A stretch of DNA of 64,000 nucleotides from Myxococcales bacterium. Lineage in GTDB: Bacteria > Myxococcota > Myxococcia > Myxococcales > UBA5297. Both the position numbers and the translations under genes were made by a program. Position 1 is the first letter of the stretch; each line of letters opens with the position of its first letter. The notes beneath the pieces are model-generated. The model saw nothing but the letters and a program-made list of their open reading frames with translations, was not told where the DNA came from and searched no databases. The DNA lies in contig JBMNNX010000001.1 of NCBI GenBank assembly GCA_050942745.1, forward strand, positions 22,938 to 86,937, read 5' to 3'. This document shows positions 25,101 to 36,870 of this stretch, piece after piece.

Positions 25101-28100
25101 ATGAGCGAGAACAAGACGGGCAGGACTCCGCACAACGTCGCCAAGGTCGAGGGGGTGCACAAGTCGGCGGCCGTCACGCAACCGGCGCCTCGAGCCAACC
25201 AAGCCGACGAGGCGACGCTCCACATCGCGCCCCGAGCCAGCGAAGGCGACGAGAAGACGCTTCACGTGCCGCGAGCCAACAAAGGCGACGAGGAGACGCT
25301 TCACCTCCCCGCGGCAGCAACCCACGTCGGCGAAGCGCCCACCCAGCACGTCGCGGCCAACCTGAAAACGGCCGCGGCGCCGCAGCCCGAGCCTGCCGCT
25401 GCGACCGTCGGCGACGCCGAGACGCAGTACCTGCCCAAGCGCACCGACAACCTGCAGGCTGCGGCCTCCGCCGCGCCTCCCACCTCGGCCGCTGACGCCG
25501 GCGACGCAGAGACCCAATACCTGCCCAACCGCGCGGCCAAGCTGAAGGCCGTGGCCACAAGCCCGACGGCGGCCCCCGGCCGCGCCGCGACCAGGGAGGG
25601 CGAGCGCGACACCATCGCCGGCCTCACCGCACCCTCGCCTGCTTCCCAACCCGCCGCGCGGCCTGCAGCGGCCAAGGCCGCTTCGCCCGCCGCCAAGGCC
25701 GCCCCCGCCGCCCCGCGCCCGGCGCGCCCGCAGGCGGCCCCCGCGCTGAAGGCCGAGGCCGCCCCCGTCCCCTCGCGCAGGCCCAATACCTTGATGCCCA
25801 CCGAGGGCGAGAGGCCCACCGGCGAGCGTCCGACCGGCGAGAGGTCGTCTTCCGGCACCACCGGCGGCAAGTCGGCCAAGGAGGCGGTCGGAGGGCTCAA
25901 GGCCGGCGACCGCATCGCGCACTACGAGCTCATCCGCCTTCTTGGCAAGGGCGGCATGGGCAGCGTCTTCCTCGCCCGCGACACCAAGCTCGGCCGCCGC
26001 GTCGCCATCAAGTTCCTGCACACCGACAACCAGGAGCTCGCCAAACGCTTCGTGCTCGAGGCCCGCACCACCGCGCGCTGCGGCCACGAGAACATCGTCA
26101 TCATCTACGAGGCCGACGAATACAACGGCATGCCGTTCATGGTCCTCGAGTTCCTCCAGGGCCATCCGCTCACCAAGCTCATCTCCGACGGCAAGCCGCT
26201 GCCCCCGGCCCGCGCGGTCGAGCTGATGGTGCCGGTGGTACGCGCCCTGGCGCGTGCCCACGAGGAGGGCATCGTCCACCGCGACCTGAAGCCCGACAAC
26301 ATCTTCGTGACCGAGTCGGGCACCATCAAAGTGCTCGACTTCGGCATCGCCAAGGTGCTCGCCGGCGACGACAAGACCTCGGACGGCGAAGGCGGGGCCG
26401 GCGGCGAGGGCGACCCGGGCGCCGAGCTGACGCGCCACGGCGCCATCATGGGCACGCTCGCGTACATGTCGCCCGAGCAGTGGCGCGCCCAGGGCATCGA
26501 CCACACCACCGACATCTGGGCCACCGGCATCATGCTCTACCGCATGCTCGCCGGGCAGCACCCGCTCAAAGGCCTGACCGGCATGGCGCTGTCGGTCACC
26601 GGCGACCTGCGCGAGCCGATGCCGCCGCTGCGCAAGGCGGCCCCGAACATCCCCCAGGACCTCGCCGACGTCGTCGACAAGTGCCTCAAGAAGAACAAGG
26701 CCGAGCGCTGGCCGGACGCGCTGTCGCTGCTGCGCGCCCTCGAGCCGTTCCTGCCGGGCCGCTTCAGCCGCGAGCTGAAGATTGACGAGAGCCCGTACGC
26801 GGGCCTCGCCTCCTTCCAGGAATCGGACGCCGATCGCTTTTTCGGCCGCTCGCACGAGATCGCCGCGGTGGTCAACCGCGTGCGCGACGTGCCGCTGATG
26901 GCGATCGTCGGCCCGTCGGGCAGCGGCAAGAGCTCCTTCGTGCGCGCCGGTGTCGTCCCCGCGCTCAAGCGCTCGGGCGAGGCCTGGGAGTCGATGGTCA
27001 TCCGCCCCGGCCGCAACCCGCTCAACGCGCTCGCCAGCGTCGTCGCCCCGCTGGTGAGCAGCTCGATCTCGGTGGAGGCCGACATCGAGGAGCAGCGCAA
27101 GCTCGTCCAGCGGCTGCGCGACGAGCCCGGCTACGCCGGCGCGGTGCTGCGCGCGCGCGCCCGGCGCGAGAAGCGCAGCATCCTGCTCTTCATCGACCAG
27201 TTCGAGGAGCTCTACACCCAGGTGGCCGACCTCGAGGAGCGGCTCGCCTTCACCGCCTGCCTGGCCGGCATCGCCGACGACGCGACCTCGCCGACCCGCG
27301 TCGTGCTCTCCATCCGCTCGGACTTCCTCGACCGCGTGCCCGAGGACCAGCACTTCATGGCCGAGGTGAGCCGCGGGCTGTTCTTCCTCACCTCGCCGGC
27401 CCGCGACGGCCTGCGCGACGCCATCGTGCAGCCGGCCGAGATGGCCGGCTACCACTTCGCGACCGACCAGATCGTCGACGACATGCTCTCGCACCTGCAG
27501 GCGACGCAGGGCGCGCTGCCGCTGCTGCAGTTCTGCGCGAGCAAGCTGTGGGAGAGCCGCGACGCGGCCCGCAAGCTGCTCACCGTCGCCAGCTACGAGT
27601 CGATAGGCGGCATCGCCGGCGCCCTGGCCAGCCACGCGGACAACGTCCTCAACGAGCTCGCCCCCCAGACCCGCAACCTCGCCCGCGCGGTCTTCCTGCG
27701 GCTGGTCTCACCCGAGCGCACCCGCGCCATCGTCTCGGTCGAGGAGCTGCTCGAGCTGTCGCGCGACGGCGGCGAGGTCCAGCGCCTGATCGACCAGCTC
27801 GTCCAGGCGCGCCTGCTCACCGTGCAGACCGGCGGCGGCGGCGCCACCGTCGAGATCGTCCACGAGTCGCTCATCCACTCCTGGCCGACGCTGCGCCGCT
27901 GGCTCGACGAGAGCGGCGAGGACGCGGCCTTCCTCGAGCAGCTGCGCAACGCGGCCAAGCAGTGGCAGGCTAAGAGCCACGACAGCGGCCTGTTGTGGCG
28001 CGGCGAGATGGTCGAGGAGGCAAGGCGCTTCCAGCGCCGCTACCGTGGCGAGCTGCCCGCGCTGCAGCAGCGCTTCCTCGAGGCGGTCTTCAAGCAGGAG

Positions 28101-28595
28101 CTGCGCGCCGCGCGCCGCAAGCGCGCCATCACCGTCGGCGCGCTCGTCTTCCTCACGCTGCTCGTCGCCGCCTCCTTCGTCGCGCTCGTGGTCATCCAGA
28201 ACGCCCGCCAAGACGCGCTCGTGCAGGCCGACCTCGCCAAGATGGCCGAGGCCGAGGCGAAGCTGCGGCTCGAGGAGGTGCAGCGCAAAGAGCGCGAGCG
28301 CGCCGAGGCGGCCCGCCTCGCCGAGGAGGCCAGCGCCCGCGCCCAGGCGGCCGCCGAGGAGCTCAAGGACAAGAACGCCGAGCTCTTCGAGGCGCTCGAC
28401 AAGGCCGAGCAGGCCCGCAAGCGCGCGCGCGACGCCCAGGCAGGCGCCGAAAAGAACGCGCGCGCCGCCCAGATCGCCCGCCGCGAGGCGCTCACTGCCG
28501 CCCGCGAGCTCGAGTTGCTGCTCAAGAAGGAGCAGGAGCGCGCCCGCCGGCTGCAGGAGCAGCTCGGCAGCCCGGTCATCGACACGCTCAAGTAA
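25101..28595 (+). CDS. Ser/Thr protein kinase fused to a STAND-like P-loop NTPase, a TM helix and a C-terminal coiled coil
   Basis: Start re-set to ATG 25101. Kinase motifs [23 protein letters not shown] and SPE. Then [20 protein letters not shown]...[11 protein letters not shown] (Walker A), [10 protein letters not shown] (Walker B-like), TM helix [23 protein letters not shown], and a Glu/Ala/Arg/Lys coiled coil. Confidence 0.85.
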
Positions 28596-35700: not shown

Positions 35701-36870
35701 ACGAACACCTACGCCCTCTCGGTCGGCAAGACGGGCAACGGCAGCGGGCGCGTGGCCTCGACTCCCGCGGGTATCGACTGTGCGACCGGCTGCGGCTCGG
35801 CGTCGTTTGGCTTCGCCTCGCACACGGTGGTGCTGCTCACCGCGGAGCCCGATGTGGGCTCGGTCTTCTACGGCTGGAGCGGCGACTGCACCGGCCTGAC
35901 CTGCGAGCTGACGATGGACGCGGCCAAGTCGGTCATCGCGATGTTCACCGACTGCGGCGACGGCGTCGTCGAGGGTGCCGAGGAGTGCGACGACGGCGAC
36001 CTGGACGACGGCGACGGCTGCAGCGCGGCCTGCGCCGTCGAGGCTGAGTTCACCTGCTCGGGCGCGCCGAGCACCTGCACCAACACCTGCCACGACGGCG
36101 CGCAGAACGGCGACGAGCTCGGCGTCGATTGCGGCGGGGCATGCCTGGCGTGCGACGGCGCGGCCTGCGCGAGCGACGCCGAGTGCCGGAGCGGGAGCTG
36201 CGTGGACAACGCCTGCGCGGCCGCCTACCGGCACACGCTCACCATCGACGGGACGGGCGAGTTCACCGCGGCCGAGCAGCTCGCGACGACCTCGCCCGGC
36301 TACACGGCCTACGTCACCTGGGACGCCGACAACCTCTACCTCGGGTTCGAAGGCCCGGACATCGACCTGACGGACGGCGCGAGCGACACCAAGTGGCTGA
36401 TGATCTACCTCGACACCGATCCCGGCGCGGCGACCGGCGCGTCCACGGGCTTCACCTACAATTCACGCGCTCCCACCTTCCCCGCCGGCTTCGGCGCCGA
36501 ATACCACTTCGGTTGGAAGACCGGAGGCGACAACTACGTGAACAAGAAGCAGTTCACGGCCGGCTGGGAGGACGCCACCGCGACCTTCGATTGGCAGCGA
36601 GCCGGCAACCTCGTCGAGATCCGCATCCCGCGCGCCGACCTCGGCGCCAACATCGAGCGGCTCGGCATCTCGATGTTCATGCACAACGAGGACTCGAGTG
36701 GCCGGTGGTCCTACGCGGCCCTCTACGCTGAGGGCTGGGGGCTCTCCACCGTCGCGCCTTTCGACCCGATCCAGGATGCAGACTTGGATCCGATCACTCC
36801 GGCGTACTACCTGCTCGCCGACTTCCGGCTCGCCCGCGATCCGTCGGACCCGGCTAGCAAGCAGCCCTAG
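29728..36870 (+). CDS. 2380-aa lipoprotein with multiple repeat and domain types
   Basis: Lipobox LALTTC. 31 CG[DN].-(8-12)-C(D/E).. units between about 29.9 and 32.96 kb, plus one at about 35.95 kb. A unique domain follows. Eight ~82-aa (Y/W/F)x(I/V)GGTVSGL...LVLQNNGGD...C.V.NG.GT...V..V.V.C modules are flanked by InlB-B-repeat-like segments. The C-terminal ~200 aa look CBM-like. The start lies 10 nt after the PEGA gene stop. Confidence 0.85.

Follow-up and report, generated by a model that had tools for sequence, protein, structure and literature searches.

In enterobacteria, the Rcs and NlpE-Cpx systems sense with a lipoprotein of the outer envelope and signal by way of an intermediary, in the inner membrane or the periplasm, to a kinase in the cytoplasmic membrane; this relay depends on the distance across the periplasm. 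PknK of Mycobacterium tuberculosis is a soluble Ser/Thr kinase with a cytoplasmic sensor region. It is a STAND-type kinase of the MalT subfamily, and MalT-type STANDs exchange ADP for ATP in an inducer-dependent manner before they multimerise (PMC4381067). The paper that named the nSTAND1 clade (Kaur, Iyer, Burroughs, Aravind 2021, PMC8195603) described C-terminal sensors with an FGS/C-type-lectin fold, which are often diversified by diversity-generating retroelements. In Myxococcus xanthus, TraA carries a polymorphic distal domain on a stalk of Cys-rich tandem repeats and acts with a second envelope protein, TraB (PMC3325183, PMC6372800). Here we analyse a triad of adjoining genes (g1, g2 and g3 for genes 1 to 3) in a stretch of 64,000 nucleotides from a Myxococcales bacterium (contig JBMNNX010000001.1 of assembly GCA_050942745.1), which we call the window. 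We propose that the triad is one conserved operon that may well encode an envelope-spanning sensory kinase complex, and we put the probability of this reading at about one half.

The triad resembles each of these systems in part. Like the nSTAND1 proteins of predicted conflict systems (PMC8195603; PF20703), g1 has a full-length NTPase module, in which both Walker A and Walker B are intact, and a Ser/Thr kinase in the N-terminal effector position. Where those proteins have a fused sensor, however, g1 has a transmembrane helix followed by a predicted periplasmic coiled coil. Moreover, the variable element of the triad is a separate lipoprotein, two envelope proteins are obligatorily linked to the switch, and the locus lies in the core chromosome, whereas the conflict systems lie in variable islands. 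With PknK and the MalT-type STANDs (PMC4381067), g1 shares the kinase-STAND fusion and the expected ADP-to-ATP exchange followed by multimerisation, but unlike PknK it belongs to the nSTAND1 clade, is membrane-anchored and lacks a fused sensor domain. What the triad shares with TraA/TraB, namely a polymorphic distal domain borne by a stalk of Cys-rich tandem repeats and a second envelope protein as partner, comes with the opposite orientation: g3 has an N-terminal lipobox and a C-terminal head, whereas TraA has an N-terminal PA14 domain and a C-terminal MYXO-CTERM tag. The g3 repeats are of type TIGR02232 and those of TraA of type TIGR04201, the head folds differ, and the partner g2 is a TPR/PEGA protein instead of an OmpA-like one; in addition, the triad comprises a cytoplasmic STAND-kinase, which TraAB is without. 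The relay from a lipoprotein to a kinase recalls Rcs and NlpE-Cpx, though as a functional analogy and not as homology. There, histidine kinases act with small lipoproteins, whereas the triad combines a Hanks-type kinase gated by a STAND NTPase with a lipoprotein of 1000-2400 aa that ends in a polymorphic head.

Every domain family of the triad that bears a name is already known, as are kinase-STAND fusions (PknK) and nSTAND1 modules with kinase effectors. In the literature we found no description of a fused sensor replaced by a transmembrane helix plus a periplasmic coiled coil whose tip is invariant, of a kinase-STAND protein obligatorily linked to a stalked lipoprotein and a TPR/PEGA protein, or of this polymorphic head, which has no Pfam family. 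A first-pass annotation of the window, made from its letters alone, had likewise known of no described function for the three genes together, and none turned up in the literature.

Synteny and expression signals of the triad

With a profile of g2 homologues we retrieved 80 loci (L001-L080) from contigs of one genome per species, with up to 10 kb on each side, and searched them by tBLASTn with parts of g1 and g3. The first-pass annotation had named synteny across Myxococcota in advance as the test that could refute its operon, and the triad withstood it. The g1 tail was found directly upstream of g2 on the same strand in 67 of the 68 loci with at least 1.5 kb of upstream sequence, and the nSTAND1 part in 59 of the 60 loci with at least 3.5 kb. 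An open reading frame (ORF) with Cys repeats, i.e. g3, follows g2 directly in all loci with at least 1 kb of downstream sequence (75/75). Clustering of the ORFs over all loci showed that the g1, g2 and g3 families are universal and that no other neighbour is kept; the flanks differ across lineages and are stable within families. In the complete Corallococcus sp. EGB genome, whose genes were called independently, the trio consists of a Pkinase+nSTAND1 protein followed by proteins of 424 and 984 aa. Since synteny is conserved to this degree, a chance arrangement is excluded. Among the orthologous loci, g1 stop and g2 start are separated by a median of -4 nt, with an ATGA or GTGA overlap, and the gap between g2 and g3 is mostly 3-15 nt. 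Because of these overlapping or short junctions and the conserved gene order, the data fit co-transcription with translational coupling, and comparative evidence for one functional, co-transcribed unit could hardly be stronger.

In the window, g1 (25101-28595, + strand, 1164 aa), g2 (28626-29717, +, 363 aa) and g3 (29728-36870, +, 2380 aa) are separated by 30 and 10 nt, exactly as first annotated, and the same two gaps occur in independent assemblies of the window's organism. At a G+C content of about 70%, gene calling relied on third-position G+C (GC3), which amounts to 0.90-0.93 in g1-g3; all three are therefore coding. The g1 start at 25101 is supported, because GC3 in the g1 frame is low upstream and climbs at about 25113. 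Ribosome-binding sites of the GGAGG type had been assigned to both downstream genes. This holds for g2, with GGAGGA 11 nt 5' of its ATG, but not for g3, where (T)AGAGG overlapping the g2 stop provides GAGG and no full GGAGG. The presumed promoter region is the divergent intergenic region of 399 nt 5' of g1 (24702-25100), in which a scan for sigma-70-like promoters gave no match. A terminator scan of the locus found none between the three genes. The sole convincing one lies 3' of g3, a hairpin of 14 pairs (11 G-C) followed by TTTTCG (36890-36920, +), which resembles an intrinsic terminator and begins 20 nt past the g3 stop.

Triads occur in Corallococcus, Pyxidicoccus, Archangium, Stigmatella, Hyalangium and Vitiosangium; the loci span Myxococcaceae, Archangiaceae, Kofleriaceae and Haliangiales, and some genomes have two or three paralogous copies. 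The best 120 hits of either of two g2 searches included proteins of Pyxidicoccus and Corallococcus and none of the genus Myxococcus, so that the triad is probably missing or highly diverged in this model genus. One locus of a Myxococcales UBA1203 genome (L013, 6652-8019 and downstream) has g2 and a g3 of 2808 aa but lacks a kinase-STAND gene over 6.9 kb of upstream sequence; the same genome has another copy with g1 (L010).

Architecture of the three proteins

The product of g1 had been described as a Hanks-type kinase joined to a STAND P-loop module, one transmembrane helix and an extracytoplasmic or coiled-coil tail, and profile matches, motifs and hydropathy all agree with this description. 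The kinase domain (residues 275-537; 25923-26711, +) matches PF00069 with E 1.5e-48 (166 bits against a cut-off of 31.7) and has all its motifs intact: GKGGMG at residue 282, VAIK at 301, HRDLKPDN at 393, DFG at 413 and SPE at 457. It is followed by the nSTAND1 module (residues 565-962; 26793-27986, +), whose match to PF20703 (E 1.2e-115, 387.6 bits against a cut-off of 27.1) covers model positions 1-378 of 379. Both nucleotide-binding motifs are intact, Walker A (GPSGSGKS, 604) as well as Walker B (LLFIDQFEE, 695; Walker [10 protein letters not shown]), and a motif test scored the P-loop as the active form, as opposed to the inactive iSTAND forms. A match to AAA_16 is weak (29 bits) and under the cut-off. 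A canonical fused C-terminal sensor was not found in Pfam searches up to E 1; past residue 962 there is only a linker, a single transmembrane helix and the coiled coil. The first-pass annotation had expected a WD40 sensor behind the helix, as usual for this family; the sensors that the paper naming nSTAND1 reports for it are C-terminal and of the FGS/C-type-lectin fold (PMC8195603).

The helix spans about residues 1009-1032 (28125-28196, +) within a hydrophobic stretch from 1007 to 1036 and has a hydropathy of 2.94. It is preceded by an RRKR-rich flank with a charge of +5 and followed by a charge of -2. Because the positive flank precedes a single strong helix, an N-in/C-out topology is predicted, which indicates the side that the coiled coil should face, a check that had been suggested at the outset: the tail would be periplasmic. 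This tail (28197-28592, +) is helical, charged and 132 aa long in the window, and ends in a conserved peptide, [11 protein letters not shown], at 28560-28592. Its sequence is variable among orthologues, but the end is nearly invariant (RLQxQLGSPVI[DE]xLK-COOH in about 64 of 73). Tail lengths of 132 aa (7 loci), 139 aa (11) and 146 aa (31) together account for 49 of 69 loci and step by whole heptads, which suggests a length-constrained coiled-coil 'ruler'. As a continuous helix, at 0.15 nm per residue, it would measure roughly 20 nm by our estimate, comparable to the width of the periplasm.

At the other end of g1, a low-complexity region without any Pfam match (residues 1-274; 25101-25922, +) contains repeats such as DEATLHI, DEKTLHV, DEETLHL and DAETQYL, the last of which occurs twice. 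The DEATLHI-type motif is absent from orthologues, whose N-termini are much shorter, so the region is lineage-specific. The repeats might serve as phospho-acceptor or docking sites within this lineage; as conserved phospho-sites, the threonine-containing repeats were dropped, since the orthologues lack them.

For g2, the predicted export and the PEGA domain were borne out, whereas the transmembrane anchors given in the first-pass annotation are weakly hydrophobic. The N-terminus is a signal peptide for export by Sec, and the AlphaFold2 model reaches a pLDDT of 81.6. A TPR-like helical domain comes first (residues 68-159; 28827-29102, +; pLDDT >90). It matches peptide-binding TPRs (Tah1, RPAP3, CHIP and Sgt2) in Foldseek with E 4e-3 to 3e-2 and TM-scores, normalised to target length, of up to 0.8, and in Pfam TPR_16 stays, at 17.8 bits, under its cut-off of 32.7. 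The best-conserved stretch of g2 lies within this domain and carries the motif WDHPAIHYN ([24 protein letters not shown]). A PEGA/transthyretin-like beta-sandwich follows (residues 161-237; 29106-29336, +), assigned by PF08308 (24.0 bits, cut-off 20.8) and, in the model, by a Foldseek match to the transthyretin-like domain of carboxypeptidase D (E 8e-5). The remainder (29352-29714, +) is modelled as a helical hairpin (residues 243-280 and 287-323, CGGC forming its tip), followed by beta strands at the C-terminus, which end in RF. The hairpin helices are rich in Gly and Ala and have a hydropathy of 1.55. A Gly-zipper or SlyB-like identity was considered for this hairpin and has no Pfam support. 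The C-terminal part (29595-29714) ends in an invariant ..ATFRF, with R362 and F363 invariant. This ending resembles the C-terminal beta-signal of outer-membrane proteins, and g2 could be linked to the outer rather than the inner membrane. We also considered that the C-terminal peptide of g1 docks in the TPR-like domain; the TPR invariants are unchanged in nine loci with non-canonical peptides, and the idea is unsupported.

The third gene had been taken for a giant surface lipoprotein. Its lipobox and Cys repeats are confirmed, whereas the size of 2380 aa turned out to be lineage-specific: a typical g3 has about 1000-1100 aa (median about 1050) and consists of anchor, stalk and head. The anchor region (29728-29904, +) comprises a signal peptide, the lipobox LALTTC with Cys28, and a membrane-proximal motif, C-[FI]-E-P-x-S-x-x-C-x-[ST]-G-[LV]-V-C-P, that is kept in nearly all of about 75 orthologues, as is the Cys at the lipobox position ([LS][SA]C[FI]EP). 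Thus g3 is predicted to be a bacterial lipoprotein from its signal peptide and lipobox Cys, with a conserved segment (C-F-E-P-x-S-x-x-C-P-S-G-L-V-C-P) following this Cys. The stalk (residues 60-1075; 29905-32952, +) is built of 31 Cys-rich acidic repeats with a period of 31-36 aa and contains 132 of the 178 Cys residues of g3. A pattern scan counts 32 units, with the extra one at residue 2076. The repeats match DUF4215 (E 7.9e-43) and TIGR02232 (E 1.6e-66, 11 stretches), and their number varies through indels even among close species.

The head follows the stalk (residues 1076-1237, 162 aa; 32953-33438, +). As judged from alignments and an AlphaFold2 model, its core is of the beta-alpha-beta type and its small tail Cys-knot-like, and in about 40 of 45 homologues it is located at the C-terminus or within a few residues of it. 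No Pfam family covers it, no solved structure matches its sequence significantly, and a word-indexed homologue search with the head alone returned no matches. When 1.84 billion representatives were searched exhaustively with HMMER, on the other hand, 424 proteins matched at E ≤ 1e-3, mostly with the domain at the C-terminus and in a few cases with 5-12 tandem copies of it. The core of about 125 aa occurs in 4-12 tandem copies in the large proteins P0122, P0133, P0196, P0125 and P0124, one of which has RTX calcium-binding repeats. The core is a widespread extracellular module without a Pfam family. The model, based on an alignment of 48 sequences, is confident (pLDDT 87.8, pTM 0.79). Against the PDB, Foldseek gave weak neighbours only, namely outer domains of phage tail-sheath proteins and flagellin with query-normalised TM-scores ≤ 0.41. 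Among predicted viral structures, baseplate-J-like, tail-sheath and uncharacterised tailed-phage proteins matched with query-normalised TM-scores of 0.57-0.66, E down to 5e-8 and identities of 22-25%. Enzymatic relatives were absent from the structure search, and by its modelled fold the head appears to be an exposed module of the 'decoration/binding' type.

Beyond the head, the window's g3 has an extension (33442-36867, +), delimited by Pfam and repeat positions, that only the window and L001 have among the retrieved loci. It contains a Flg_new_2 unit (1239-1316), eight beta repeats of about 85 aa (1321-1994), a second Flg_new_2-like unit (1995-2072), a Cys-rich segment (2075-2160) and a C-terminal domain (2165-2380; 36220-36867) with no sequence match in Pfam or the PDB. 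A Cys-rich acidic repeat at residues 2075-2125 (35950-36100) aligns with human pappalysin-1/-2 (PAPP-A) in the PDB with E 2e-6 to 7e-4, so that a solved structure of this repeat type exists. The beta repeat of the extension recurs elsewhere: in 18 loci of Archangium and Corallococcus (e.g. L026, 4634-6340, +), a lipoprotein gene directly 5' of g1 encodes two copies of it followed by NHL repeats, with a SET-domain gene 5' of that gene. This NHL-repeat lipoprotein was considered as a fourth component and excluded, being a lineage-specific neighbour present in 18 loci only.

Divergence along the triad and genomic surroundings

We compared orthologous triads of close species pairs and estimated the ratio of non-synonymous to synonymous substitution rates (dN/dS) by NG86, which is rough at this G+C content. 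Constraint drops steeply from g1 over g2 and the g3 stalk to the g3 head. The STAND module is 90-99% identical between close pairs with a dN/dS of 0.06-0.24, g2 78-96% identical (0.22-0.44), the stalk 63-92% (0.25-0.68) and the head 38-86% (0.5-1.1). In all pairs whose STAND modules are at least 97% identical, g2 shows 88-96% identity and the head 44-86%. The suggestion in the first-pass annotation that sensing is delegated to the proteins encoded downstream fits this gradient, in which a conserved kinase-STAND protein stands against a fast-evolving head.

The divergence of the head is sharply bounded. When A. gephyra L026 is compared with A. violaceum L069 in sliding windows, nucleotide identity is 86-98% from g1 through g2 into most of g3. 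It drops to 34-66% across the final repeats, the head and the stretch immediately 3' of g3, and is back at 86-98% further downstream. The STAND modules of L026 and of L069 or Archangium sp. L015 are 98% identical and their heads 45-47%, whereas the comparison of L026 with Vitiosangium L035 gives 91% for STAND and 73% for the head. Head types are thus incongruent with the kinase tree, because the L026 head is nearer to that of L035 than to those of L015 and L069. Synonymous divergence between head 'types' is raised as well. Between the window and L001, identity is 91% for g2, 85% for the stalk and 62% for the head, with dN and dS of the head each about 2.5-3 times those of the stalk. We read the head as a recombining or anciently polymorphic hotspot, on the evidence of these alignments. 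Positive selection on it is not proven, since dN/dS is not clearly above 1 and the estimates are rough at this base composition.

As for its surroundings, the window represents core chromosome, with lpxK, waaA, hrcA-grpE-dnaK and ftsK. Two genes of lipid A and Kdo synthesis, lpxK and waaA/kdtA, usually lie close together. In the window (22558-23805, - strand, and 38501-39895, -), the triad and a 259-aa gene (23922-24701, -) that is divergent from g1 and lies 5' of it sit between them. Only the closest relative, L001, has these flanks in common with the window, and the operon may have inserted into a lipopolysaccharide (LPS) gene cluster in the lineage of the two. The LPS-gene context was dropped as a functional clue, being common to this pair alone. 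Further away, two adjoining genes with vWA domains are located at 9227-12645 (+), the first of which (700 aa) has an unusually high second-position G+C of 0.61.

Possible signalling route and alternative explanations

The non-cytoplasmic parts of all three proteins are predicted in one compartment, by the topology of g1 and the N-terminal signal sequences of g2 and g3. In an envelope-spanning sensory kinase complex, g1 would be anchored in the inner membrane, its kinase and STAND modules facing the cytoplasm and its coiled coil extending across the periplasm. The invariant tip of g1, the conserved TPR-like surface of g2 and the conserved membrane-proximal segment of g3 would form a contact network. 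The head of g3 would bind a variable ligand outside the cytoplasm, either at the cell surface or in the envelope, and the signal would pass from the membrane-proximal segment of g3 via g2 to the tip of the coiled coil of about 20 nm. A ligand-dependent change might then lift the autoinhibition of the STAND module and permit nucleotide exchange and oligomerisation, as in MalT-type STANDs. Oligomerisation would gather the kinase domains for trans-autophosphorylation and, subsequently, phosphorylation of targets.

Several points weigh against this proposal. The function assigned to the triad, be it signalling or the adhesin role considered in the first-pass annotation, is deduced from sequence. 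g3 may be placed on the periplasmic face or at the cell surface, and the proposal gives no account of how the signal would cross the outer membrane. The membrane of g2 may be the inner or the outer one, because its 'transmembrane' helices are weakly hydrophobic. Classes of the g1 C-terminal peptide gave no covariation signal with TPR residues of g2, neighbour clustering linked no kinase substrate, FHA protein or phosphatase to the locus, and one locus (L013) has g2 and g3 without g1, as the sole exception.

Four other explanations have to be weighed. The triad could be an NLR-like conflict or immunity system, in which the head baits or senses a phage, a predator or the toxin of a competitor, detection makes the STAND module oligomerise, and the kinase effector triggers growth arrest or a defence programme. 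The nSTAND1 clade was indeed defined in predicted counter-invader systems, whose N-terminal effectors include S/T/Y kinases (PMC8195603), and a fast-evolving, recombining sensor next to a conserved signalling NTPase is the typical logic of immune receptors; besides, baseplate and tail proteins of phages show the fold of the head again, and several genomes have 2-3 paralogous triads. We nevertheless consider it unlikely. The locus is in the core chromosome and is inherited vertically with stable flanks within families, and the triad is found in nearly every retrieved locus instead of being patchy. Matches to PADLOC-DB 2.0 cover residues ~253-624, essentially the kinase domain, with none for g2 or g3, and next to nucleases, TIR domains or proteases, a Ser/Thr kinase would be an unusual choice of terminal effector. 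Somewhat less likely still is a kin or cell-cell recognition receptor of the TraA/TraB type that also signals, with allele-specific binding of the head to neighbouring heads or to a surface glycan, g2 as anchor and g1 reporting contact. Such a receptor would account for the TraA-like design (polymorphic distal domain on a Cys-rich stalk, lipid or sorting anchor, envelope partner; PMC3325183), for head types that disagree between species with the kinase phylogeny (L026 versus L015/L069 and L035), and for an island of divergence so localised between flanks of 86-98% nucleotide identity. However, Pfam and NCBIfam detect no PA14 domain, TIGR04201 repeat or MYXO-CTERM tag, and the C-terminus is without a Cys/transmembrane/Arg tag. 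Furthermore, dN/dS is not clearly above 1, and all head comparisons are between species.

A role in envelope structure or assembly, without any specific external ligand, would make g3 a part of a matrix or surface layer, g2 its anchor and g1 a monitor of export or of spacing by means of the coiled-coil ruler. The heptad-quantised, narrowly distributed tail length speaks for it, as do the PEGA domain, a type regarded as cell-wall-associating (PMC7159879), the ..FRF end of g2 that resembles outer-membrane proteins and the position of the window locus between lipid A and Kdo genes. That position is not kept beyond the closest relative, however, and a sharp divergence island with switching of types at the distal domain is unexpected of a purely structural protein, which renders this explanation improbable. 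Finally, g3 could be a polymorphic lipoprotein toxin of the SitA or contact-dependent inhibition (CDI) kind with g2 and g1 as accessories, given that it is a lipoprotein whose variability peaks towards the C-terminus, with a recombination breakpoint near the 3' end. This is highly improbable, and we rejected a polymorphic toxin-immunity pair, because the head variants are all homologous over their whole length with a conserved core and no co-varying ORF lies downstream. Unrelated toxin folds were not seen among the heads, and Pfam matched no toxin family. The head domain is present in 5-12 tandem copies in other proteins; there is no small, immunity-like ORF on the same strand 3' of g3, the downstream gene varies independently of the head type, and in the window a terminator stands directly 3' of g3.

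Returning to the sensory kinase complex, STAND and NLR switches have been understood as cytoplasmic proteins with a fused ligand-binding domain, whereas here a membrane anchor and a periplasmic coiled coil take its place, and the switch is genetically locked to two envelope proteins, one of which has a fast-diversifying distal domain. A bolder and more tentative idea is that of a transmembrane 'receptor-NLR', whose sensor has been moved outside into a recombining, polymorphic stalked lipoprotein. Extracellular non-self, such as kin alleles or the surfaces of prey or phage, might then be converted into Ser/Thr phosphorylation by NTP-driven oligomerisation at the inner membrane, via the coiled-coil ruler.

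If the proposal is true, the triad would connect the cell surface of these social, predatory bacteria with Ser/Thr phosphorylation by a route not described before, and it would be a second polymorphic stalked receptor system beside TraA. Its apparent absence from Myxococcus may explain why it has not been studied, and the genera Corallococcus, Archangium, Stigmatella, Pyxidicoccus and Hyalangium, in which it is found, are cultivated and tractable.

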